From: Clostridia bacterium | Lineage (GTDB): Bacteria > Bacillota > Clostridia > Oscillospirales > CAG-272 | Length of the DNA: 64,000 nucleotides | NCBI GenBank assembly: GCA_900767415.1 | Contig: CAAFYZ010000028.1 | Coordinates: 22,987-86,986, forward strand | Direction: 5' to 3' | Shown: one piece after another, positions 6,633 to 41,664 of the stretch | Layout: each line of letters opens with the position of its first letter | Position numbering within the stretch: the stretch's first letter is position 1 | Program-made: the position numbers and the translations under genes | Notes under the pieces: model-generated | Seen by the model: only the letters and a program-made list of their open reading frames with translations | Told to the model about the DNA's origin: nothing | Database searches by the model: none

Positions 6633-8093
6633 ATGCCGCTTACCCATTCTTCTTATCCTCCCGCCGTGCTTTGCGCTCTGCTCGAAGAGCGTACGCTCCC
6701 GATCTTCTTCGTCGGGATCGGCGGCGTCTCCGTCCGCACACTCGCCATGTACGCACACCGCCTCGGCTATCCCGTGCGCGGCTGTGACAGAGAAGAGAGC
6801 CCCGCACTCGACGCTCTGCGCGCCGTCGGAATCGAAGTCTTCCCCCGCCACGCGGCGGAGAACGCCCGCGGCGCGGGACTTGTCGTCTATACGCTCGCCG
6901 CGTCGGAGAATACCCCGGAACTTTGCTATGCGCGTGACCACGGGATCCCCGCCGTTTCGCGCGCCGAGTTCCTCGGTGCGCTCATGCTCCGCTTCGATAC
7001 GAGGATCGGCGTCTCCGGCTCTCACGGGAAGAGCGGCACGACGGCAAAACTCGCCGCCGCCCTTCGCCTCGCGGGCAGGCGTCCCACCGTCTTCTGCGGT
7101 GCCTCTCTCCCCGGGGGAGAGCCGTGGATTTTCGGCGGGGAGGAGACGCTGATTTACGAGGCGTGCGAATACCGCGACTCTTTTTTGCACTTTTTCCCGA
7201 CCGTTTCCGTCTTTTTGAATCTGGAGCTCGATCATACCGACTATTTTGCGGACATCGACGCGCTCGCGGCGTCCTTTCTCGCCGCCGCCGACCGTTCGCC
7301 CGTCTCGGTGCTGAATGCCGACGACGAACGTCTTCGCCGCATCGCACGGAAGACGAAGAGCCGCCCGATCCTCTTCGGAGAAGGGAAGGACTACGACTTC
7401 GGTTACCGCGTGACGGACGTCTCGCACGGCTACGTTACCTTCCGCGCCTACGAGGGCGGGGAAGCCCTCGGCGACGTGACTCTCGGGACACCGGGGCGTT
7501 TTCAGACGGTGAACGCCGTCGCCGCAATCGCCGCCGCCCGCACGACGGGGACGGATTTTTCGTATCTTCGGACGGCACTTTCCCGCGATACGGGGATCCC
7601 CCGTCGGATGGAACGGCTCGGCACGCTGTTCGGACGCCCTGTGTTTTACGACTATGCCCATCATCCGACCGAGATCCGCGCGGTTTTGTCCGCTCTGCGC
7701 GAGATGACGGGCGGGGGCGTTACCGTGATCTTTTCGCCGCACACCTATTCCCGCACGGCGTCGCTGTTTTCTTCCTTTGCCGACGCGCTCGCCGAGGCGT
7801 CGGACGTAATCCTTCTGCCGATTTTCGCGGCGAGAGAAGAGCCGATCCCCGGCGTGACGTCCGAACGTCTTGCGGAGGCGATCGGGAAAAAAGCCGTCGC
7901 CCTGTCGGCGGAAGACGCACTCGGCTATGTCGAAGAACATACCGAAGGGGCGATCGCCCTGCTCGGGGCGGGCGATCTTTCCGTTCCCCTTGCCGGGATT
8001 CGTGCCGCTCTCGACGGCAAAAGTCCCGGTTTTCCCGCCGAAAAAGAAAGAAAAAACGAAAAAACTCTTGACAATCCGCCCCGATCGGTGTAA
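6633..8093 (+). CDS. murC: UDP-N-acetylmuramate--L-alanine ligase
   Basis: FFVGIGGVSVRTLA Rossmann N-terminus, GVSGSHGKSGTT P-loop, Mur ligase central and C-terminal patterns. Start is uncertain (ATG 6633 chosen; the track ORF begins at an alternative start at 6540). Confidence 0.88.
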   Translation: MPLTHSSYPPAVLCALLEERTLPIFFVGIGGVSVRTLAMYAHRLGYPVRGCDREESPALDALRAVGIEVFPRHAAENARGAGLVVYTLAASENTPELCYARDHGIPAVSRAEFLGALMLRFDTRIGVSGSHGKSGTTAKLAAALRLAGRRPTVFCGASLPGGEPWIFGGEETLIYEACEYRDSFLHFFPTVSVFLNLELDHTDYFADIDALAASFLAAADRSPVSVLNADDERLRRIARKTKSRPILFGEGKDYDFGYRVTDVSHGYVTFRAYEGGEALGDVTLGTPGRFQTVNAVAAIAAARTTGTDFSYLRTALSRDTGIPRRMERLGTLFGRPVFYDYAHHPTEIRAVLSALREMTGGGVTVIFSPHTYSRTASLFSSFADALAEASDVILLPIFAAREEPIPGVTSERLAEAIGKKAVALSAEDALGYVEEHTEGAIALLGAGDLSVPLAGIRAALDGKSPGFPAEKERKNEKTLDNPPRSV

Positions 8094-8096
8094 AAT
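8068..8096 (+). promoter_or_regulatory. promoter of the mgtE leader (overlaps murC 3' end)
   Basis: TTGACA, 17 nt, TGt-TAAAAT. Confidence 0.6.
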
Positions 8097-8099
8097 ACC

Positions 8100-8320
8100 G
8101 ATGAATGAAACATACTGAAAGCGAGGTGAGACCGCATGATAGGGGATGACCGAAGTAGCAAGGTACACATATCGTATACCGACGCGCATTTTCCGCGGTC
8201 TCGCACCCGCGGAGCGGGACTCGGGGCGTAGTTTCCCCGAGGGAGATTTTTGCCCGGCTTTTGCCGTGCTCTGTCTTCTTTTTTCGCGCGCGTCGATGAT
8301 GCGCGCTTTTTCGTTTTTCC
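8100..8320 (+). promoter_or_regulatory. structured 5' leader with intrinsic terminator upstream of mgtE (candidate M-box Mg2+ riboswitch)
   Basis: Long-range stem GGTGAGACCGC (8125-8135) / GCGGTCTCGCACC (8195-8207). Hairpins CCCGC-gga-GCGGG and CTCGGGG-N8-CCCCGAG. Terminator 8285-8320. AGGUGAG start resembles the M-box 5' end, but the conserved 3' GCUAAAGC was not seen. Confidence 0.45.
8285..8320 (+). terminator. leader (attenuator) terminator before mgtE
   Basis: GC stem CGCGCGCG...GCGCGC followed by TTTTTCGTTTTT. Confidence 0.65.
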
Positions 8321-8356
8321 GCAGAAAACGAAATCCGAGAAAAGAGGAACCTACCC

Positions 8357-9772
8357 ATGCAGGACAACGAAAACCGCACGGACGACGTGCGTGAAGTACA
8401 TGAGACCCCGGACCTTGCCGAAGTGGCGGAGGAACTTCGGCAGAAGATCGACGAGAGAGATTTTGCCGGCTTCCGTGCCGAGATCTCGACGCTGAACCCG
8501 ACCGACATCGCCGAACTCTTCGATGAGATCCCCGAAGAGTACGAAGGTCGCTTTTTCCGCCTTCTTTCCAAAGAGGACGCGGCAAAAGCGTTTGTCGATA
8601 TGGACTCCGACAGACAGGAAAAAATCATCAACTCCTTCACCGACCGCGAACTTGCCGAGATTCTGGACGAGCTTTTCCTTGACGATACCGTCGATATCAT
8701 CGAGGAGATGCCCGCGAACGTCGTGAAGAGAATTCTCCGCAACTCCACACCCGAAAACCGCAATATCATCAATCAGCTTCTCCGTTATCCGAAGGACAGT
8801 GCCGGCACGATTATGACGACCGAGTACGTCCGCTTTACCAAGACGATGACGGTGGAGCAGGCACTCGCGCACATCCGTCGCGTCGCCATCGATAAGGAAA
8901 CCATCTATACCTGTTACGTGACCGATGCGGACAGACATCTGCTCGGCATCGTTACGGCAAAGGCCCTGATGATCTCTCCTCTCACCACCCGTCTTGAAGA
9001 TATCATGGAGGAGAACGTGATCTCGGTCGATACCGAAGAGGACAAAGAGGACGTCGCGAAGGTTTTCGACCGCTACGGATTCCTCGCGCTTCCCGTCGTT
9101 GACAAAGAGAACCGACTGGTCGGTATCATCACCATCGACGATGCCATGAGCGTCATGCACGACGAGACGGAAGAAGACTTCGCGAAGATCGCCGGTATGA
9201 CCCCCACCGAGACTTCCTATCTGAAGACCGGACCCTTCCGCCTCTTCCTTTCGAGAATCCCGTGGCTTCTTCTGCTGATGATCTCCGCGACCTTTTCGAG
9301 TACCATTCTGAACCGCTTCGAGGCGGCACTCCCCGCCGTTCTGATCCTCTTCGTCCCCATGCTGATGGATACGGGAGGGAACGCGGGCGGTCAGTCTTCC
9401 GTCACCGTGATCCGCGGCATTTCCCTCGGAGAACTCTCTTTTTCCGACCTTCTCGCCTCCGTCTGGAAGGAACTCCGGGTCGGTATCCTCTGCGGCGGTG
9501 CGCTTGCCGTCGTCTCGTTTTGCAAGGTGATGCTGGTCGACCATGTCATCATGCAGAATCCGAACGTTACCGTGACCGTCGCTCTCGCCGTTGCCATCTC
9601 GCTCGCTCTTACCGTTATCGTGGCGAAGCTGATCGGCTGCCTTCTTCCGCTTTTTGCCGCGAAGATCGGACTTGACCCTGCCGTGATGGCGTCTCCTTTC
9701 ATCACGACGATCGTAGACGCACTTTCTCTGCTTTTGTACTTCGTGATTGCGGCGAAAGTCTTCGGATTGTAA
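8357..9772 (+). CDS. mgtE: magnesium transporter MgtE
   Basis: N-domain (DIAELFDEIP), tandem CBS region and C-terminal TM domain with PMLMDTGGNAGGQSS motif. Confidence 0.95.
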   Translation: MQDNENRTDDVREVHETPDLAEVAEELRQKIDERDFAGFRAEISTLNPTDIAELFDEIPEEYEGRFFRLLSKEDAAKAFVDMDSDRQEKIINSFTDRELAEILDELFLDDTVDIIEEMPANVVKRILRNSTPENRNIINQLLRYPKDSAGTIMTTEYVRFTKTMTVEQALAHIRRVAIDKETIYTCYVTDADRHLLGIVTAKALMISPLTTRLEDIMEENVISVDTEEDKEDVAKVFDRYGFLALPVVDKENRLVGIITIDDAMSVMHDETEEDFAKIAGMTPTETSYLKTGPFRLFLSRIPWLLLLMISATFSSTILNRFEAALPAVLILFVPMLMDTGGNAGGQSSVTVIRGISLGELSFSDLLASVWKELRVGILCGGALAVVSFCKVMLVDHVIMQNPNVTVTVALAVAISLALTVIVAKLIGCLLPLFAAKIGLDPAVMASPFITTIVDALSLLLYFVIAAKVFGL

Positions 9773-11548: not shown

Positions 11549-13297
11549 ATGCAAAAACTCAAACAGCAGATTGCCGAGGCGGTCTCCGCCTCCGCCGCCC
11601 GGAAGTTCGCCGGGGCGGCACTGACCCCCGCCGACATTGCGGCGAATCTCGAATACCCTCCCGACCCCGCGATGGGCGAGCTTGCCCTTCCGTGTTTCCG
11701 CCTGTCGAAGGTTCTTCGCCGTTCTCCGAAGGAGATCGCCGAGACGCTCGCCGCGGATTTTTCCTGCGACGGGATTGTCGGCGCCGACGCGGTGAACGGG
11801 TATCTGAACTTCCGTATTGACGGTACGGCACTTGCCGCGCGCATCGTCCCCGAGATTCTGACGAACGATTCTTACGGTTCGCCGATGAACGGCGTCGGCA
11901 AGACGGTCGTTCTCGATTATTCCTCGCCCAACGTCGCAAAGCCCTTTCACATCGGGCATCTCGGCACGACGGTGATCGGCCATTCGCTGAAACTTCTGCA
12001 CGAGTTCGCGGGGTATCGCTGTATCGGGATCAACTATCTCGGTGACTGGGGCACCCAGTTCGGAAAACTGATCGTCGCCTACAAGATGTGGGGCAGCAAA
12101 GAAGAAGTGGAGGCGGGCGGCGTCGATGCGCTGGTTGCCCTCTATGTGCGGATCAACAACGAGATCAAGGCGGAAGAAGATGCCTCGTCGGCAAAGAATC
12201 CGGAAGGGAAGAAGTCCTCGCACCTTGCCGATCTCGCCCGTGCCGAATTCAAAAAACTCGAAGAGCACGACGAAGAGAACATCGCGCTGTGGAAATGGTT
12301 CGTCTCGGTCAGTCTCAAAGAGTATGAGAAAACCTATCGTCTTCTCGGGATCGCCTTCGACAGTTATAAAGGCGAATCCTTCTATACCGATAAGATGCCC
12401 GCCGAGGTGGAAAAACTCCGCAGCATGGGTCTTCTCACGATTGACGACGGCGCGTCGATTGTCGATCTCTCGAAGTGGAATATGCCTCCCTGCCTGATTC
12501 TGAAGCGGGACGGCTCCACCCTCTACCCGACCCGCGATATTGCCGCCGCCGTCTATCGCTACGATACCTATCATTTTGACAAAGCGATTTATGTCACGAG
12601 TGCCGCACAGTCCCTTCACTTTGCCCAGTGGTTCAAGGTGGTGGAGCTGATGGGATACGACTGGTATGACCGTTTGGTTCACGTCCCCTACGGCACCGTC
12701 AGTATCAACGGGATGAAACTTGCGACCCGCACCGGCAACGTCATTTTGCTGAAAGATCTCTTTGCCGAGGCGATCTCCCGTGTCGAAGAGATTGCAAAAG
12801 AGAAGCACCCCGACCCCGCAGAGTGTCGTGCCATCGCCGAGAAGGTCGGCGTCGGCGCGATCGTCTTCTATTATCTTTCCAACAACCGGATGCGCGACAT
12901 CAACTTTATGATGGAAGACGCCCTCACCTTTGACGGGAACACGGGTCCCTATGCGCAGTATACGTATGCGCGCACCTGCTCGGTGCTTGAGAAAGCGCCC
13001 GGAGAGCATACGCCGACGGGAGTGCCCCTCTCGCCGAAAGAGTGCGATCTGGTCAGGACGCTTTCGCTCTTCCCCGAGAAGGTCGCGGCGGCGATCGCGG
13101 ATTACGAGCCGTCGGTCGTCACCCGGTATATTCTCGATCTTTGCGCGGCGTTCAACGGATTTTATCACGATTGCCCGATCCTGACGTCGGAGAATGCACA
13201 GGAGAGGGAGAACCGTCTCGCTCTGACTGCCGCGACCCGCCGCGTTCTCGGACGCGCCCTGCATCTCATCTGTATGCAGACCCCCGAGAAAATCTGA
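11549..13297 (+). CDS. argS: arginine--tRNA ligase
   Basis: SSPNVAKPFHIGHLGTT (HIGH), class I core, DALR-type anticodon-binding C-terminus; start MQKLKQQ with RBS AAAGGA. Confidence 0.95.
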   Translation: MQKLKQQIAEAVSASAARKFAGAALTPADIAANLEYPPDPAMGELALPCFRLSKVLRRSPKEIAETLAADFSCDGIVGADAVNGYLNFRIDGTALAARIVPEILTNDSYGSPMNGVGKTVVLDYSSPNVAKPFHIGHLGTTVIGHSLKLLHEFAGYRCIGINYLGDWGTQFGKLIVAYKMWGSKEEVEAGGVDALVALYVRINNEIKAEEDASSAKNPEGKKSSHLADLARAEFKKLEEHDEENIALWKWFVSVSLKEYEKTYRLLGIAFDSYKGESFYTDKMPAEVEKLRSMGLLTIDDGASIVDLSKWNMPPCLILKRDGSTLYPTRDIAAAVYRYDTYHFDKAIYVTSAAQSLHFAQWFKVVELMGYDWYDRLVHVPYGTVSINGMKLATRTGNVILLKDLFAEAISRVEEIAKEKHPDPAECRAIAEKVGVGAIVFYYLSNNRMRDINFMMEDALTFDGNTGPYAQYTYARTCSVLEKAPGEHTPTGVPLSPKECDLVRTLSLFPEKVAAAIADYEPSVVTRYILDLCAAFNGFYHDCPILTSENAQERENRLALTAATRRVLGRALHLICMQTPEKI

Positions 13298-34724: not shown

Positions 34725-36137
34725 ATGAACAGATCCTATGACATCGTTATCGTCGGCGCAGGTCCTGCCGGCATTTTCACCGCGATCGAGATGCTTCGCC
34801 GCGGCACCGAAAAGAAGATCCTGATCGTCGAAAAGGGGAAGGCGATCGAAAAGCGCGTCTGCCCCAAAGTGAAAACCAAAAAGTGCATGAACTGCAAGCC
34901 CTGTCACATCACGACGGGATTCTCGGGTGCCGGCGCATTCTCGGACGGCAAACTCTCGCTCTGCGAAGAGGTCGGCGGCGATCTGCCGAGTCTCATCGGC
35001 GCGGAGTACGCCAAGAAGATGATCGACTACACCGACTCCATCTACCTTGAGTTCGGTGCCGATACCCATATCGAAGGACTGGAGCACGAAGAGGAGAAGA
35101 AGGAGATCCGCCGCAATGCCATTAAGGCGGGGCTGAAACTCGTCGACTGCCCGATCCGCCACCTCGGCACGGAAAAGGCGCAGGAGATCTATTACGCCAT
35201 CGAGCAGTATCTTCTGAAGGGCGGGGTCGAGATTCTCTTCGATACCGAGTGCCGCGATCTGCTCATTACCGAAGACGAGGTCTGCCGCGGTATCGTCATC
35301 GCTACCAAGGACGGCGAAGAACGGATTGAGGCGGAAGAGGTTATCGTCGCGACCGGACGCCGCGGCGCGGAATGGCTGGAGAAACTCTGCGCCGAGCACC
35401 ACATCGCCCATCAGCCGGGCACCGTCGATATCGGCGTGCGCGTCGAAGTGCGTAACGAGATCATGGAGAAGATCAACACCGTCCTCTATGAGTCAAAACT
35501 CGTCGGACACCCTGCTCCCTTCAAGAACAAGGTGCGCACCTTCTGTCAGAACCCCGGCGGCTTCGTCAGCCAGGAGAACTACGACCACGGACTTGCCGTC
35601 GTCAACGGACATTCCTACAAGGATTTGAAGAGCAGTAACACGAACCTTGCGATTCTCGTCTCGCACAACTTCTCCACCCCCTTCAATCAGCCGATCGAAT
35701 ATGCGCAGAAGGTCGGTGAACTTACCAATATGCTCGGCGCCGGGCATATCCTCGTTCAGCGGTTCGGCGATATTCTGGACGGGAAACGCACCTGGCCGAA
35801 AGAACTTGCCGAGTCGAACGTCCGTCCCACCCTTCCCGATGCGGAGGCGGGCGACATCACGGCGGCGATGCCTTACCGCGCCATGATGAATATCATCAAC
35901 TTTATCAAAGCGGTCGATCACGTCGTCCCCGGCTTTGCGTCTTATGAGACGCTTCTGTATTCTCCCGAGCTGAAATTCTATTCCAACCGGGTGAAAATGG
36001 ACGAGAACTTTACCACCAGCGTCAGAGGTCTGCATTGTCTCGGCGACTCTTCGGGCTGGACACGCGGTCTGATGATGGCGTCCGTCATGGGTGTCATCAT
36101 GGGAAGAAAACTCATGGAAAAGGAGCAGGGGAAGTGA
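34725..36137 (+). CDS. FAD-dependent oxidoreductase (COG2509-type)
   Basis: DIVIVGAGPAGIF dinucleotide-binding start, Cys cluster CPKVKTKKCMNCKPC, GDSSGWTRG near the C-terminus. Confidence 0.82.
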   Translation: MNRSYDIVIVGAGPAGIFTAIEMLRRGTEKKILIVEKGKAIEKRVCPKVKTKKCMNCKPCHITTGFSGAGAFSDGKLSLCEEVGGDLPSLIGAEYAKKMIDYTDSIYLEFGADTHIEGLEHEEEKKEIRRNAIKAGLKLVDCPIRHLGTEKAQEIYYAIEQYLLKGGVEILFDTECRDLLITEDEVCRGIVIATKDGEERIEAEEVIVATGRRGAEWLEKLCAEHHIAHQPGTVDIGVRVEVRNEIMEKINTVLYESKLVGHPAPFKNKVRTFCQNPGGFVSQENYDHGLAVVNGHSYKDLKSSNTNLAILVSHNFSTPFNQPIEYAQKVGELTNMLGAGHILVQRFGDILDGKRTWPKELAESNVRPTLPDAEAGDITAAMPYRAMMNIINFIKAVDHVVPGFASYETLLYSPELKFYSNRVKMDENFTTSVRGLHCLGDSSGWTRGLMMASVMGVIMGRKLMEKEQGK

Positions 36138-36198
36138 GTGTTGCGCATGTGCGCGCGCCCCTCTTCCGTTGCCCTTCGGACGGCGGGGCGGATGCCGT

Positions 36199-36945
36199 AT
36201 GATGTGCGACGATGAGATCCGTCGGAATTTTGCCGCGGCGCGCCTTCTCTGCCTTTCGCAACTTCCCGCGCATGACGGCGGGATCGGCACGCTCGGGGAG
36301 AAGATACAGCACAGGATTCTGAAATATACCTTCGCACCGGACGACACCTGCCATGAGATCCCCTATCTCGGCAGTGTCGCGGATATTAAAAACGAAGAGG
36401 GAATTTTCGAGATTCAGACCCGCTCATTCGGCAGTCTTGTGCCGAAACTTGAAAAATTCCTGCCGAAAACCCGCGTTACCGTCGTCTATCCTCTCCCGCA
36501 TGAAAAAGTGCTTCATAACGTGGATCCCGTGAGCGGTGAGATTGGAAAAGGGCGGAAAAGTCCGAAGAAATGTAAAGTATACGATGCATTTTGGGAACTT
36601 TATCGCATTCGTCCCTTTCTTTCTCATCCGAATTTTCGTCTGATTCTCGCCTTTTTCGACGTTGACGAATACCGAAAAAAGACGTCGCGCACCCGCCGCG
36701 GCAGTGAGCGGGTCGAGCGGATTCCCGCCCGCTTTTGCGGGACGGTCTCCCTTGCGGGGAAAGAGGATTACGCGCGTGTCTTTCTGCCTGCGACGCTTGC
36801 CGACCCCTTCACCGTAAAAGCGTATGCGAAAGAGACGGGCATCGCCCCGCGGTATGCCGCCCTCGGCATTTCGATTCTTTCCTCTCTCGGGATTCTTTCC
36901 CACGACGGAAAAGAGGGAAGAGCATACCTTTACCGTAAACTCTGA
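36199..36945 (+). CDS. hypothetical protein, possible RecB/Cas4-like PD-(D/E)xK fold
   Basis: G-TLGEKIQHRILKY ... VADIKNEEGIFEIQTRS motif order resembles nuclease motifs I-III. Start uncertain (ATG 36199 or 36202). Followed by terminator 36951-36987. Confidence 0.55.
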   Translation: MMCDDEIRRNFAAARLLCLSQLPAHDGGIGTLGEKIQHRILKYTFAPDDTCHEIPYLGSVADIKNEEGIFEIQTRSFGSLVPKLEKFLPKTRVTVVYPLPHEKVLHNVDPVSGEIGKGRKSPKKCKVYDAFWELYRIRPFLSHPNFRLILAFFDVDEYRKKTSRTRRGSERVERIPARFCGTVSLAGKEDYARVFLPATLADPFTVKAYAKETGIAPRYAALGISILSSLGILSHDGKEGRAYLYRKL

Positions 36946-37006: not shown

Positions 37007-38464
37007 TTACCCGATCATGACGACCGGAACATATCCCGCGGTAAAGCGATCTTCTGCCGTGATTTCGAGCACGGCGCGGTTTACCGCCGCGACGGTCTCG
37101 CCGGCGTGAAGGGTGAATTCCGTCTCCGCCATGGCGGGGTCATGCGCGTTGAAGTGCGGGAGACGAAGGGCGCGGGAGCCGCCTGAGACGGTGAATCCGT
37201 CGGGGAGGAACCAGCGCAACTTCAGATTGTACGGTGCGTTGCCGTAGTCTCTCCAGTTGTTGCGGACGATGAGTTTGACCTTCACTTCGCCGCCGGGCGT
37301 GATGTCGGGCGTCGTCTCATAGATCAGGGTCGCCGACGCGTAGGCGAAATCGACGGTAAAAGAGAAGGGAAGAAGGTGACGGAGCCGTTCTTTTGTCTCC
37401 GTACCTTTCGACAGCTTTGCGGGTGCGTCGGCGGGGATCTCGCTCTCGCCATCCGTGAGCCATATATCCGCATGGTTTGCCGCGAGCAACAGGGGGGTCT
37501 GATGAGCCACTCTGTCGGTCAGCTGGGCGCAGGTTGTCGGCAGACCGTAGAGAAGACCGCGATTGATGGAGATGGTGACGATCGACTCGCCGATATGGGC
37601 TTTCCAGTCGTCGGGGATTCCTGCCATGCCGCCGAGGATGCCGAGCGTCGCGCCCACCGTCGCACCCGTGCAGTCGGTGTCGTCGCCGCAGTTGATTGCC
37701 GTAATCATGGACTTTTTGAAATCGCCTTCGCCGAAAAGAAGACCGAGGACGGTATATGCCACGTTCGAGGGGGCTTCAAACCAGCCGTCGCCGATATCCG
37801 CATTCAGCTTCAGTATGAGATCGCGCGTCTCACGCGGCGTCTTTTTGCCTTCGTAACACTCGATGACAAAGCGCACGCTCCTCGCGACGCGGCTCTCTTC
37901 GGGGATCTTGGTCAGCGCGATGTCGATGGCTTCTCTGGCAGTCTTCACGACATAGGCGGAAGACTGCATGGCGGCGACAAACGCCGCGGCAATCGTGCCT
38001 TCGCCTGCACCGTGGTCGACCGTTGCGTCCTCGATCGCGTACTTCACCGCAATATCGGGTGCGCCGGGGGCGAGAGATGCCCAGATCTCGGTACGGATCC
38101 ACGCACCGTTCGAGTGCCGCCACGTGTTGCGATAATCTCCCGAAAGGGGCGGGAACATCCCGAGCCGCATATTCGTTTTTCCGATGCCGTATTCGTTCCA
38201 GTACGGGACGATATAACTCAGCCAGAATTCGCCGAGATCCGCGGCGGTGAGACGGTAAGGACCGCGCGCTTCTAGGGCGGAGAGCCAGACGAGCTGAAGA
38301 TCGAGGTCGTCGTTCGGGAGCACGACGCTCGCGTCGGTCACAAACCCTTTGATGTCGAGATATTCCCGCCCGCCTTCATAAGGCGTACCCATGGTTCCGC
38401 CGATATTTTTTCCGATCCATGCGGCATGGAGCTTGTCGCGATAGAGGTTTTGATTCAGTTTCAT
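37007..38464 (-). CDS. ADP-ribosylglycohydrolase family protein with C-terminal beta-rich extension
   Basis: GKNIGGTMGTPYEG, DDLDLQL, INCGDDTDCTGATVGATLG motifs of the ARH/DraG family; about 150 extra C-terminal residues. Confidence 0.88.
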   Translation of the reverse strand: MKLNQNLYRDKLHAAWIGKNIGGTMGTPYEGGREYLDIKGFVTDASVVLPNDDLDLQLVWLSALEARGPYRLTAADLGEFWLSYIVPYWNEYGIGKTNMRLGMFPPLSGDYRNTWRHSNGAWIRTEIWASLAPGAPDIAVKYAIEDATVDHGAGEGTIAAAFVAAMQSSAYVVKTAREAIDIALTKIPEESRVARSVRFVIECYEGKKTPRETRDLILKLNADIGDGWFEAPSNVAYTVLGLLFGEGDFKKSMITAINCGDDTDCTGATVGATLGILGGMAGIPDDWKAHIGESIVTISINRGLLYGLPTTCAQLTDRVAHQTPLLLAANHADIWLTDGESEIPADAPAKLSKGTETKERLRHLLPFSFTVDFAYASATLIYETTPDITPGGEVKVKLIVRNNWRDYGNAPYNLKLRWFLPDGFTVSGGSRALRLPHFNAHDPAMAETEFTLHAGETVAAVNRAVLEITAEDRFTAGYVPVVMIG

Positions 38465-38535
38465 GATGAGGTATCCTTCCTTTCACGCCTTTCGGCAGGA
38501 AAAGTCTTTTGAGCCGAAAGTGTTGTGCTGTCTTT

Positions 38536-38564
38536 ATTATAGAGGACGGCGGGAACGGTTGCAA
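38536..38564 (-). promoter_or_regulatory. promoter of the ADP-ribosylglycohydrolase gene
   Basis: Minus strand TTGCAA, 17 nt, TATAAT. Confidence 0.55.
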
Positions 38565-38629
38565 GCACTTTTTTCTACTTTTTGGTGTCAGATTTTTACA
38601 TCTTCGAAAGTAAGAAGGTGAAATTACCC

Positions 38630-38658
38630 TTGACAGTGAAAGAACATTGTGCTATTAT
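38630..38658 (+). promoter_or_regulatory. promoter of the exonuclease-HNH islet gene
   Basis: TTGACA, 17 nt, TGc-TATTAT. GTGAAAT at 38618-38624 lies just upstream of the -35. Confidence 0.6.
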
Positions 38659-38720
38659 CGACTTGTAAAGTTTTTATCAATATCTAAGGCAAAAGATCAT
38701 ACAAACGAGGGGCGTCAATA

Positions 38721-40271
38721 ATGTTAAGCAATCAGAAGGTTAAAAAAATTAAATTTGAAGATGCTTTGAAGTATTTAGATCATAAAAATATTACTAATGA
38801 AACTGATATTGTCAGATTGGAATGTTGTTGTGATATATTGCAATTAGATAGTATTATTAGAAAATACAAGTTAAAATTATGGTCTGATTATCAACCTGTT
38901 TGCGGCAGTCTTCTCCCATACGGCTATTGGACATGGGCGGGGCCAAGTTCTGACGATGGTTCATATGTTTATTATGTGGCAAAGTCGAATGCTTATGGAC
39001 ATATGAAATATCTTTATTGTATGGATAATGTATATATGTTTTTTACTGTTGCAAGCAATAAAAGTCCTAAAATTGATTTTCTTTTTGATACTTACCGATA
39101 TGATGTGAATGATATTTTTATCGACATAGAAACAACAGGATTGAATCCAATTGTTGATGATATTTTAAGTATTGGACTTTATCAACTTTCTACCGGCAAA
39201 ACTTTTCATAAATACCTTCCTCTCGAAAAGCAAAAAAATATTCCAAAAGAAATCACCGATATAAATGGAATAACAGAAAAAGACTTGATAAATTCAACCG
39301 CATTGACACAAAAAGATATTGATGAAATTATTAAAGTTTTTCAAATAGGCGAAAATCGATTAACCATGTGGGTCGGAAAAAACTTATTTGATGCGGCGTT
39401 TTTAACCTGCTATTTTAGAGAACACAATTTAACAGATTATGGAAAATTTTTATTTCAAAACGCAACAGAATTTGCAAAACTGTATTTAACGCCATATAAT
39501 GTTCGCGATTTTTCAAAGGATCATGTAGCGAAAATGTTTCTGCTTGATCTGCCGGAACATCATGGCGCATTATCTGATTGTAAAACGGAAGCGCAAATAT
39601 GCGAAAAAATTCATAGTGAGACTGTACCAGTAGTACCAAATGTGGGATTCATATGTAGCGAATTGAAAAAAAGTTATATTGTAATGACGAAGGAAAGGGC
39701 TTTTGAATTATATGAAACAATGTGTTTATATTGCAAAGTGATATATGGTAAAGTGAATCAAGATTATGATGATCACCCAAGAACAAGAGGGGCTGAAAAC
39801 ATAGATATCCATCATATTGACGAATTAACTTTAGATAATATTGCAATAAGAACAAACCGCGCACAAAAAGAGGGGGATATTAAGGAACTTGAAAGATTGA
39901 AACCGTATAATAAAAAAGAGCGTCTTGTCTATGCAGACAAGGAAGACCACTTTCTCCTTCATTGTTTGATTGAAAAAATTAGACCCGGGTTGGGGGGTGG
40001 ACCTCATTATTTATATGCTTATATAATCAATCAAAACATGCCATATATTGAAATGCTTCGAGAAATATATGTAAATCTTATTTGTTTTCAAGATCTTGAT
40101 ATAGAGAGCATATATCCTTTTTGGGAAACCGTCTTTCAACAACACAATTTCGATTTTTCAAAATTGCAAAAAGAAAAAGAGACAATTAAAGTTTTGCTTG
40201 ATGAATCGAAAAGTCAAATGCAAGCAAATGAGCGGAAAATTTTCAACGATCTAAATTGCAATATTGACTAG
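38721..40271 (+). CDS. fusion protein: unassigned N-domain + DEDDh (DnaQ-like) 3'-5' exonuclease + HNH-like module
   Basis: ExoI FIDIETTG (D135/E137), ExoII NLFDAAFL (D224), ExoIII HHGALSD (H281/D286). CLYC(335-338)...IDIHHID(361-367)...N373/N379...DHFLLH(409-414). AT-rich codon usage; own promoter and terminator. Confidence 0.8.
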   Translation: MLSNQKVKKIKFEDALKYLDHKNITNETDIVRLECCCDILQLDSIIRKYKLKLWSDYQPVCGSLLPYGYWTWAGPSSDDGSYVYYVAKSNAYGHMKYLYCMDNVYMFFTVASNKSPKIDFLFDTYRYDVNDIFIDIETTGLNPIVDDILSIGLYQLSTGKTFHKYLPLEKQKNIPKEITDINGITEKDLINSTALTQKDIDEIIKVFQIGENRLTMWVGKNLFDAAFLTCYFREHNLTDYGKFLFQNATEFAKLYLTPYNVRDFSKDHVAKMFLLDLPEHHGALSDCKTEAQICEKIHSETVPVVPNVGFICSELKKSYIVMTKERAFELYETMCLYCKVIYGKVNQDYDDHPRTRGAENIDIHHIDELTLDNIAIRTNRAQKEGDIKELERLKPYNKKERLVYADKEDHFLLHCLIEKIRPGLGGGPHYLYAYIINQNMPYIEMLREIYVNLICFQDLDIESIYPFWETVFQQHNFDFSKLQKEKETIKVLLDESKSQMQANERKIFNDLNCNID

Positions 40272-40412
40272 AATCTCTTGGATACAAAATATAACGTCTT
40301 GAAATATAAAATCTCCTAGAGAAGGCCGTAATCGGTTTCCATAAGGTCTTCCTCAAAAATGGTGAGACAAAGAAACTCACCATTCAGGATGCCGAGTGAT
40401 ATCCCAAGTGAC

Positions 40413-40463
40413 AATCCTCCCCAAAAGCCAAATGCGTGGTTTTTCGGGAGGATTCTTCTTTTT
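40413..40463 (+). terminator. probable terminator at the right edge of the low-GC islet
   Basis: AATCCTCCC...GGGAGGATT stem with imperfect inner pairing, then CTTCTTTTT. Confidence 0.5.
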
Positions 40464-40478
40464 CGATGATTCCGCCCC

Positions 40479-40539: not shown

Positions 40540-41664
40540 ATGACGGATCCACAGACTTCGGCGCTGATCGGCGCCATTCTTTCGCTCGGTACGCCGGAGG
40601 AGTGCAAGGCGTTTCTTACCGACCTTTGTACGGTAAAAGAGATTGACGAGTTTTCCGCCCGGCTGGAAGTTGCCCGACTTCTGAGCAGCGGCGTCAACTA
40701 TCACGACATCGTGGAACGCACGGGAGCATCGACTGCCACCATCAGCCGTGTCTCCAAGGCACTCTCCGGCTCGTCGGGCGGCTATCGCACCGCCCTCTCC
40801 CGCCTCGGAATGCCGCGGGTGCGCGACGGCGTGCCGACGGACAAACTGCCGCTTCTCCCATCGGAGCGGGCGGCGTATTCTCTGATGGCGCATTTTGAAG
40901 AGCGGGGCTATCACCGCTATGCGCGTTCCACCTTCCCGGAAGGCGCGGAAAAAGAGACGCTCGGCGATGTCACACTCTCCCTTATCGACACGGTGCCCAC
41001 GGCACCCGGCACGTATAAGTATTGCTACTTTGAGAACCTTCTCCGCCCGGATGAAAAACGGCGGCTTTTGCGTCGCATCTCGCAGACGGGGATCGAATGT
41101 ATCGGCAACGTCACGGGAGAAGAGGAGAAGGAAGTCCTCTCTCTTGCCGCCGTCGCGCTGTCTTTGCTTGCCGGGAAGTTCGAGATTTCCGTAGCGCCGC
41201 TCGCATATTCCGACGCACTTTTTGCCCGTTACGGGATTTACGGCACCTATCGCAGGGAGGCATATCGTCTTTTGCGCACGTCCCCTGCCGAATTGCGCGA
41301 CTTTCTCCTTACCAAAGGAGAGGAAAAGAGGAGCGCGGACGCCGTCGCCGATCTTTTATGCGTCAAGCGAAAGGCAGACGAAGGGCTTTCCGAGATGCGC
41401 TTTTTCGCCGCGAGCGATGCGGAGCGGTCGGCGTGCGAGGAGTTGCGCACGGCTCTTTCGGGGATCACGAGCGGGAATCTGACGATAGATTTTACCCTGA
41501 CGCCCGGTATGGAGTATTACGACGATCTTTTCTTCGTCGGACGCACGGGGCGCACGACGGAGGTGCTCCGCGGCGGACGCTATGACGCGCTGATGCGCCG
41601 CCGCGGACACGACGGCGGTGCCGTCGGCTTCGCCGTTTATCTCGATGCTCTGACAAAAAAATAA
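40540..41664 (+). CDS. YerC/YecD (TrpR-like) HTH fused to HisZ/HisRS-like class-II core
   Basis: Res 1-90 closely resemble B. subtilis YerC (CTVKEIDEFSARLEVARLL...TGASTATISRV). Res ~105-374 align by eye to HisZ (QTGIECIG, MEYYDDLFF, GGRYDALM, GFAVYLDAL). Confidence 0.8.
   Translation: MTDPQTSALIGAILSLGTPEECKAFLTDLCTVKEIDEFSARLEVARLLSSGVNYHDIVERTGASTATISRVSKALSGSSGGYRTALSRLGMPRVRDGVPTDKLPLLPSERAAYSLMAHFEERGYHRYARSTFPEGAEKETLGDVTLSLIDTVPTAPGTYKYCYFENLLRPDEKRRLLRRISQTGIECIGNVTGEEEKEVLSLAAVALSLLAGKFEISVAPLAYSDALFARYGIYGTYRREAYRLLRTSPAELRDFLLTKGEEKRSADAVADLLCVKRKADEGLSEMRFFAASDAERSACEELRTALSGITSGNLTIDFTLTPGMEYYDDLFFVGRTGRTTEVLRGGRYDALMRRRGHDGGAVGFAVYLDALTKK

Follow-up and report, generated by a model that had tools for sequence, protein, structure and literature searches.

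What is the lone, extremely AT-rich gene at 38721..40271 (plus strand) of this Clostridia genome stretch, how did it come to stand among native genes, and what might its product do? The stretch analysed, hereafter the window, comprises 64,000 nucleotides (nt) of contig CAAFYZ010000028.1 (positions 22,987 to 86,986). The gene encodes a three-part protein of 516 amino acids (aa), in which an N-terminal domain, a DEDDh (DnaQ/RNase T-type) 3'-5' exonuclease and a module related to the SAV1803 family follow one another, an architecture recognized by comparison with 40 full-length relatives. Genome alignments show that the gene is of foreign origin and took the place of a native two-gene cassette, and copies in gut Clostridia and phages recur in cargo and defence hotspots. 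For its function we tentatively favour a role as a stand-alone dual nuclease in conflicts that involve phages.

The gene coincides with the only AT-rich trough in the window. Between 38668 and 40280 the guanine-plus-cytosine (G+C) content is 0.317, compared to 55.9% in the rest of the window and a mean of 0.558 for other 1.6-kb segments (standard deviation 0.026, minimum 0.488; z = -9.2), and G+C at third codon positions is 0.25 in the gene versus 0.73 and 0.69 in the two adjoining genes. The open reading frame (ORF) of 516 aa is the sole long ORF inside the trough. A first-pass annotation had described a low-G+C islet with a single gene; its counts of 25.0% (38761-38820), 40.0% (39601-39660) and 63.3% G+C (38041-38100) were reproduced, and the single long ORF was confirmed. 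The edges that it proposed, 38565-40465, were too wide, as alignment with sister genomes confined the foreign DNA to approximately 38668-40280 and identified 38465-38667 as native intergenic DNA and 40281-40399 as the remnant of a native pseudogene. In agreement with the same annotation, no ORF up to about 3 kb away in either direction encoded an integrase or transposase, and no direct repeats flanked the islet in the window. A search for terminal repeats and for a duplicated target at the islet likewise found none.

To place the gene in its genomic setting, 80 loci from related uncultured Clostridia were retrieved by way of the flanking ADP-ribosylglycohydrolase gene. The exonuclease gene was absent from all 80, and two of them (L014 and L015) were syntenic with the window. 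In L014, whose flanking protein is 88% identical, the site is empty, because the ADP-ribosylglycohydrolase gene and the downstream TrpR-HisZ gene lie only 406 bp apart. In L015 (flanking protein 86% identical), the same two genes enclose a pair of others, for a membrane protein of 323 aa and a GH3 glycosidase of 637 aa. A tblastn search with this glycosidase revealed that the last 40 codons of a GH3 beta-glucosidase-type pseudogene persist in the window at 40281..40399 (plus strand), with a 1-nt frameshift: residues 609-638 matched at 53% identity (E = 5e-7), and residues 599-607 matched at 78% in a shifted frame. The remnant begins 9 nt past the stop codon of the exonuclease gene, and the native terminator and the promoter of the TrpR-HisZ gene then follow. 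On the other side, the native divergent intergenic region (38465..38667) aligns with L015 to about 38667-38680, and homology with both L015 and L014 stops at 38668, the left insertion junction.

Since the DNA on the left aligns with L015, and the GH3 remnant and the native terminator stand on the right, the alignments show that about 1.6 kb of foreign DNA, consisting of a 53-nt leader and the ORF, precisely replaced a native cassette of a transporter gene and a GH3 gene between the ADP-ribosylglycohydrolase and TrpR-HisZ genes, and that the ORF inherited the promoter and terminator of this cassette. The absence of the gene from the 80 loci, the empty site in L014 and the extreme composition likewise bear out the earlier proposal of lateral, single-gene acquisition, and show, on the evidence of sequence, that the gene was horizontally acquired. 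The GH3 remnant itself has a G+C content of 0.39, well under that of native genes, which may reflect quick decay or a stretch with a more complex history.

Expression signals at the locus are consistent with this replacement. A promoter-like element (TTGACA-17-TGcTATTAT, 38630-38658, plus strand) was the best in the region in a promoter scan, with 11/12 matches and a TG-extended -10 element, and a hairpin with a T-run lies at 40413..40463 (plus strand). Both had been noted before, the former as the gene's own promoter. The element sits in native DNA that is conserved in L015, where it precedes a different gene, that of the 323-aa membrane protein; in L014 the promoter region is partly conserved but degenerate. 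An imported promoter was therefore rejected on the basis of the alignment with L015, and by the same alignment the foreign ORF captured a native promoter. The foreign 5' leader (38668..38720, about 53 nt, plus strand, G+C 0.34) carries a GAGGGG ribosome-binding site approximately 7 nt before the ATG. The inverted repeat of the hairpin (40413-40454) has 18-nt arms that are 89% complementary and a 6-nt loop; it was not listed by a stricter terminator scan, and L014 and L015 bear analogous hairpins at the corresponding position. The hairpin and T-run are the former terminator of the GH3 cassette, which now likely serves the foreign ORF. The native intergenic region also contains the promoter of the ADP-ribosylglycohydrolase gene (38564-38536, minus strand).

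An independent sample yielded another genome with the same insertion (L113), in which the ORF is intact and the protein is 98% identical to that of the window. Because the synonymous divergence (dS) of the gene between the two genomes is no higher than that of the flanks, the gene predates their split and has remained intact. The ratio of nonsynonymous to synonymous divergence (dN/dS) was 0.37 for the gene (8 non-synonymous and 5 synonymous substitutions), compared to 0.11-0.21 in the flanks. The record that contains L015 (CAVEOF010000027.1) is labelled 'Coriobacteriaceae bacterium', yet it is syntenic with the window and with loci in Clostridia metagenome-assembled genomes (69-88% nucleotide identity); the bin probably carries the wrong label or is contaminated.

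Among 5.8 billion proteins searched, there were about 40 full-length relatives (clusters) of 510-560 aa, 33-51% identical to the window protein and almost all metagenomic. Comparison with these relatives, profile searches and an AlphaFold model of the full-length protein (pLDDT 88.7, pTM 0.81) were used to delimit its domains, and all residue positions given by the first-pass annotation (CCC 35-37, D135/E137, D224, H281/D286, CLYC 335-338, IDIHHID 361-367, N373/N379 and DHFLLH 409-414) were reproduced. Residues 132-300 (39114..39620, plus strand) matched DEDDh exonucleases in both profile and fold. Pfam RNase_T (PF00929) was matched at 1.7e-14 (55.1 bits, gathering cut-off 24), the PADLOC DEDDh model at 6e-16, PHROG_192 ("DNA polymerase exonuclease subunit") at 2e-24, and the sequence of the PolC exonuclease in PDB 2p1j at 1e-10. 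Foldseek of the full-length model against the PDB returned epsilon, the PolC exonuclease, RNase T and the S. thermophilus DnaQ domain (8h2f) with E of approximately 1e-7; the matches, which included 2p1j, 1j53, 2gui and RNase T at E values of 1e-7 to 1e-6, were to DEDDh proteins only. Motif Exo I corresponds to FIDIETTG, which supplies the D-x-E residues D135 and E137, Exo II to D224, and Exo III to the H-x4-D residues H281 and D286, and these five catalytic residues are invariant in 40/40 relatives. The exonuclease assignment made previously is thus upheld by motifs, profile score and fold alike, and residues 132-300 are, by sequence and model, a bona fide DEDDh exonuclease with a predicted intact active site.

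The possibility that the gene is a housekeeping DnaQ or PolC paralogue, syntenic and conserved among relatives, was checked and found not to be the case. The protein scored 47.7 bits against a cut-off of 873 for PolC and 28.6 against 222.7 for dnaQ_proteo, and such a paralogue is also ruled out by the absence of the gene from the 80 loci, the empty site in L014 and the AT-richness of the gene compared to its flanks.

Downstream of the exonuclease, residues 340-430 (39738..40010, plus strand) form a core that is related to NCBIfam SAV1803_dom (NF053682) and, at the level of motifs only, reminiscent of HNH nucleases in its invariant histidines and predicted beta-beta-alpha topology. The window protein matched the SAV1803_dom model at 4.6e-6 with 26.5 bits, under the curated cut-off of 40, and all 40 members of the family matched over approximately residues 341-421 at E <= 0.01 (best 4.2e-10). 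By these scores the protein is a relative of the SAV1803_dom family and not a formal member. The block that is invariant in the 40 relatives comprises D362-I-H364-H365, E368, N397, H410-F-x-L-H414 and G427-x-H429. Across 45 diverse wider relatives, G343, H364, H365, E368, L402, H410 and H414 remain invariant; N397, invariant in the 40 exonuclease fusions, is Gln in most of these wider relatives.

A separate model of residues 318-516 (pLDDT 94.7) was obtained. The predicted topology consists of a strand at 361-365 (IDIHH), a 36-aa insert of two helices, a second strand at 402-406 and a helix at 407-420 (DHFLLH); in terms of motifs, a strand that ends in HH is followed by the insert, a second strand (RLVY) and a helix with (E/D)H-x3-H. 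Judged from sequence and predicted structure only, the spacing of H364/H365 and H410/H414 is identical to that of VHHI...NLVTLCVNCHKDIH in an HNH protein encoded at L005, one of the phage-type loci that carry a relative, and the order and spacing of the module match VHHI...ENLVTLCVNCHKDIH in the genuine phage HNH protein of that locus. A BFVD search with the carboxy-terminal model gave sub-threshold matches only (best E = 0.21), and these weak matches were enriched in phage HNH and homing endonucleases.

The profile of the module was also run against 1.84 billion representative proteins. The SAV1803-like module was found in 144 clusters, many of which have other architectures. In SF2 helicases (ResIII/Helicase_C) with Myb repeats and a NUMOD domain of the I-HmuI type, it occupies the N-terminus; other fusions join it to SNF2 helicases, BspA-type leucine-rich repeats (LRRs) or NUMOD1, and it also stands alone in proteins of about 200 aa. 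In the helicase, NUMOD and Myb fusions the module holds the position that is usually taken by a nuclease domain. Motifs, modelled topology and domain context together suggest that it is probably a nuclease-type domain derived from the His-Me finger.

The family takes its name from SAV1803, a conserved gene for a hypothetical protein that borders the vSa-beta island of S. aureus on its 5' side (PMC6805111). A match of the module to a Staphylococcus "phage" was rejected as phage carriage, since the record contains chromosomal vSa-beta DNA: in this deposited phage genome (L114, MG543995.1 48422-56823) the SAV1803-like region is followed by splA-D of vSa-beta, and MG543995.1 is probably a mis-assembly or contaminated with host DNA. 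OR844996.1, also deposited as a Staphylococcus phage, gave a matching result in the same search.

The remaining parts of the protein are less familiar. The N-terminal domain (residues 1-126; 38721..39098, plus strand) is alpha/beta according to the secondary structure of the model, and only Y67, Y92 and G93 are nearly invariant among relatives; no match to it was found in Pfam, NCBIfam, PHROGs, PADLOC or a PDB profile search. Residues 431-516 (40011..40268, plus strand) are modelled as a helical bundle with a long terminal helix and are conserved solely within the exonuclease-fusion family. PHROGs searched with the N-terminal part, the carboxy-terminal part and the stand-alone relatives returned no match. 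Chance-level PDB profile matches of the N- and carboxy-terminal alignments to McbR, fibrinogen and an antibody were dismissed.

The family is rare, and is common to large gut and rumen phages and Clostridia; the window gene is phage-like in origin. No full-length homologue was present in 50,697 GenBank phage records or 72,556 plasmids, in which only exonuclease domains of about 28% identity were found. The nearest clade (44-51% identity) occurs in three phage-type settings, with its nearest members on contigs of 79-169 kb. One of these is L005, a phage-like region on a 79-kb Logan contig, in which a DnaE-type polymerase is encoded some 4-7 kb from the gene and a PD-(D/E)XK nuclease next to it; the contig belongs to a large uncultured phage with a bacterial-type replicase. 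The L005 region also encodes, in addition to the DnaE-type Pol III alpha and the PD-(D/E)XK nuclease, CapR/DUF4379, Lar (restriction alleviation), the HNH protein, a T4 endoV-like Pyr_excise protein, YopX, Tad8 and a RecD2-like helicase. The second comprises a 169-kb IMG/VR viral contig (L013) and a 167-kb metagenome contig (L099), and the third the shorter contigs L008-L012. L008 and L013 represent one lineage (49-51% identity), because they share their immediate flanks. Immediately upstream of the gene, this lineage has a slot that contains differing type II restriction-modification (R-M) cassettes between otherwise similar flanks: EcoRI-like methylases and a DUF262-HNH REase_II (PADLOC 4e-97) in L008-10, and an N6/N4 methylase with an IceA (NlaIII-like) endonuclease in L013. 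The slot, compared between L008-L010 and L013/L099, looks like a phage-borne defence hotspot with swapping of cassettes.

The more distant clade (33-37% identity) consists of lone genes in Clostridia chromosomes. The gene follows tRNA-Lys, tRNA-Trp or tRNA-Gln in L001, L006 and L095, and tRNA genes are known hotspots for the cargo of mobile genetic elements. In L094 the gene follows the greA terminator. In L097 a type II-A CRISPR array (7048-7950, at least 13 repeats with a 66-nt period) stands downstream of cas9-cas1-cas2-csn2, and the gene comes approximately 50-100 nt after its final repeat. L100 (gene at 7848-9401) has the gene order of L097, judged from ORF sizes only, and the gene after it encodes a subtilase-dockerin protein. 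At almost all loci examined the gene was richer in AT than its flanks, and the difference was negligible in L005. In L006, repeats of tRNA fragments precede the gene. The gene is enclosed by a perfect 50-bp direct repeat in L001 (9839-9888 / 11622-11671) and by a duplicated 36-nt terminator hairpin in L094 (7914-7949 / 9631-9666); both duplications are too long for ordinary target duplications made by a transposase. No flanking DNA motif was common to the loci, apart from the flanks shared within the L008/L013 phage lineage. Known defence genes adjoin homologues in 3/9 distinct contexts (a raw count, with no background rate): a type II-A CRISPR-Cas locus and, within a single phage lineage, two type II R-M cassettes that differ from one another. 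Copies in gut Clostridia and phages are found repeatedly in cargo and defence hotspots.

Taken together, the domain composition and these neighbourhoods make it possible, at somewhat less than an even chance, that the gene is a stand-alone "nick-and-resect" dual-nuclease weapon that acts in phage-host or phage-phage conflict, either in defence or in superinfection exclusion. In such a system the SAV1803-like module, with H364/H365 and H410/H414, would act as a metal-dependent endonuclease or nickase of the His-Me-finger type, and the DEDDh domain would start at the new 3'-OH and degrade the nicked or cut strand 3'->5'. Resection would turn nicks into gaps or breaks and so destroy the target DNA, and the N-terminal domain and the carboxy-terminal helical bundle may supply target choice or regulation. 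The idea of nicking followed by 3'-5' exonuclease action is said to have a precedent in the work of Moolenaar et al. in 2002 on fusions of Cho/UvrC-type GIY-YIG and epsilon-like domains. Support for a role in conflict comes from the position of the nearest clade (L008-10, L013) directly downstream of interchangeable type II R-M cassettes, from the type II-A CRISPR array that precedes the gene in L097 and L100, from the presence of Lar and Tad8 in the L005 region, and from the location of the gene after tRNA genes in L001, L006 and L095.

A number of observations weigh against this conflict role. The first-pass annotation had called the module a degenerate HNH, and this holds for the invariant histidines, the predicted beta-beta-alpha topology and the fusion partners; in matches to known families it does not hold, as the segment failed both the profile and the structure comparison. 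None of the 40 members and none of 105 distant relatives matched a Pfam HNH model, Foldseek of the carboxy-terminal model gave no PDB fold match (best E = 2.1), the profile of the carboxy-terminal alignment found nothing significant among PDB sequences, and the window protein matched no PADLOC HNH model. In hhalign the probability of relationship to a true HNH family (PF01844), represented by an alignment of the family of the L005 HNH protein, was only 7.5%; the best segment was the HH strand (P = 0.0047), and the second-best was the co-linear (N/R)LV strand, which was taken as a hint in favour of an HNH-like module at the level of motifs only. The module could instead be a non-catalytic metal-binding or DNA-binding domain. 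In PADLOC-DB v2, only the generic DEDDh (CRISPR-associated) and 'Effector exonuclease' models matched, both by way of the exonuclease domain, and the protein belongs to no named defence family, as it matches no system-specific model there; the first-pass annotation had likewise been unable to place the architecture in one. Defence genes are missing from the immediate neighbourhood in six of the nine contexts, this window among them. The dN/dS of 0.37 rests on 13 substitutions and is weak evidence of constraint. Furthermore, toxicity to the cell would be expected of a nuclease that is transcribed from a strong promoter without regulation, and no immunity partner can be seen.

A homing-endonuclease-like selfish gene of no benefit to the host would also fit part of the evidence, and we consider it unlikely, if a serious contender. 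The module would nick or cut a gene-less allele close to the site of insertion, the exonuclease would widen the lesion, and repair would copy the ORF in from a gene-bearing co-infecting phage or transformed DNA. The mobile unit is indeed close to a bare ORF, consisting of the 53-nt leader, the ORF and at most 9 nt in the window, of a 51-nt leader, the ORF and 1 nt within the duplicated hairpin in L094, and of what lies within the 50-bp repeat in L001. A defined intergenic site is polymorphic for its presence, with the gene carried by the window and L113, the site empty in L014 and other cargo in L015, and the sites differ between genomes. The AT-richness of the gene, the large phage-type contigs of its nearest relatives, the fusion of relatives of the carboxy-terminal module to I-HmuI-type NUMOD domains and the weak BFVD matches to homing endonucleases point the same way. 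The window protein, however, has no recognizable NUMOD, IENR or other DNA-binding module of homing endonuclease genes, and NUMOD-type domains occur only in other proteins that bear the module. For homing in a chromosome, two alleles must meet in the same cell, a rare event except in phages; duplications of 36-50 bp are not a normal product of homing; and a 3'-5' exonuclease removes the very 3' ends that recombination needs. Insertion beside tRNA genes, R-M slots and a CRISPR array would be no less expected of mobile-element or defence cargo; copies of the family are few, and in no locus seen does the gene lie within an intron or intein.

Two further explanations assign the gene no part in conflict. 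As an accessory replication or repair enzyme of phage origin, the protein might proofread for a DnaE-type polymerase, process 3' ends or act in a Cho-epsilon-like repair reaction, and its presence in bacteria would be incidental. The best PHROG match ("DNA polymerase exonuclease subunit", 2e-24), the PolC exonuclease and epsilon as closest solved relatives, and the DnaE-type polymerase about 4-7 kb from the gene in L005, where the gene stands next to the PD-(D/E)XK nuclease, all fit such a role. We nonetheless judge it improbable, given scores far under every epsilon and PolC equivalog cut-off (e.g., 47.7 against 873 bits) and the absence of a polymerase near the gene in the other phage clade or the chromosomal loci, except for dnaE in L094, a coincidental housekeeping gene of the host. 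It also leaves the conserved histidine module and the R-M and CRISPR neighbourhoods unexplained, and the gene is absent from 80 related species and therefore dispensable. More improbable still is the view that the ORF is left over from a phage or mobile element that has degraded, functionless in its current host and not yet decayed. The loss of any mobility or partner genes, a G+C content that has not shifted towards that of the host, a dN/dS of 0.37 above the 0.11-0.21 of the flanking genes, and the tRNA-fragment repeats upstream of the gene in L006 would be expected of such a relic. Yet the ORF is intact in two diverged genomes, whereas the adjoining GH3 remnant is frameshifted; all catalytic residues are kept, a near-consensus promoter and a good ribosome-binding site stand ahead of the gene, and intact full-length copies recur in many lineages.

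The exonuclease domain itself is ordinary, and it is the three-domain architecture and the SAV1803-like module that are undescribed in the libraries and literature searched. A bolder proposal combines two claims: that the module is a previously unrecognized, strongly diverged His-Me-finger nuclease domain, the catalytic head in at least 144 clusters (helicases, NUMOD/Myb arrays, LRRs and DEDDh proteins), and that the three-domain protein is a new single-gene anti-phage or exclusion system, carried by large phages beside R-M cassettes and repeatedly captured by gut Clostridia. In this combined form the proposal is doubtful, although it deserves some credence. If the proposed nuclease activity is real, the gene would add a compact one-gene, two-nuclease architecture to the systems of phage-bacterium conflict and would assign a function to the SAV1803-like family (144 representative clusters, no solved structure), including the gene at the edge of vSa-beta. 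If the gene were instead a selfish one of the homing type, it would extend the homing toolkit by an unusual component, the fused exonuclease. The locus is also a clean natural example of how a foreign ORF can gain expression through the native promoter and terminator of the cassette that it replaced, and the gene is a good candidate for experiments.

Among the neighbours, the downstream gene (40540-41664, plus strand) encodes a TrpR/YerC-like repressor domain (residues 7-89) fused to a HisZ-like domain resembling class-II synthetases (residues 155-371). This unusual architecture of a regulator and HisZ is kept in L014, L015 and L113. A 284-aa ORF in the window (36091-36945, plus strand) has no Pfam or PADLOC match, and the same is true of a 294-aa ORF that adjoins the homologue in L006 (11601-12485).

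With regard to known systems, DnaQ/epsilon, the PolC exonuclease and RNase T (PF00929) share with residues 132-300 the fold and the three Exo motifs, including an H-x4-D motif III. The window protein differs from them in that it is no housekeeping orthologue and in that two extra conserved domains flank its exonuclease. The exonuclease domain also matches the Cas2-DEDDh and CRISPR-associated exonuclease models PDLC01247 and PDLC00753 (6e-16 and 4.8e-5), the structures of Cas2-DEDDh (PDB 8fy9/8fyc) are matched weakly, and one clade of the family adjoins a type II-A CRISPR array. In contrast to Cas2-DEDDh, the family has no fusion to Cas2 or Cas1, the gene lies after the array and not in the cas operon, and most copies are not near CRISPR loci.

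The module resembles HNH and His-Me-finger nucleases (phage HNH, I-HmuI and the colicin E9-type HH...N...H-x3-H) in the invariant HH at the end of a strand, in a second strand that starts with (R/N)LV and leads to a helix with H-x3-H spaced as in the phage HNH protein of L005, and in fusion partners (NUMOD, SF2/SNF2 helicases) that are typical of HNH heads. It departs from them in the lack of a significant profile or fold match, in the 36-residue two-helix insert, in the absence of CxxC zinc-ribbon pairs and in a canonical Asn that is Gln in most relatives. The SAV1803 model is matched by 40/40 members, and SAV1803, too, sits on the edge of a mobile island, with hsdS/hsdM as neighbours (PMC6805111); SAV1803 proteins, however, lack the exonuclease and N-terminal domains.

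The closest parallel in design is found in the Cho/UvrC-like GIY-YIG and epsilon-like fusions (NCBIfam PRK07883), in which a small endonuclease module is likewise combined with a DEDDh exonuclease; the PRK07883 'DEDD exonuclease domain-containing protein' models are matched weakly through the exonuclease part. The module described here is not GIY-YIG, and the domain order and accessory domains differ. Moreover, the Cho/UvrC-epsilon fusions are chromosomal repair enzymes, whereas the gene in the window is mobile cargo.

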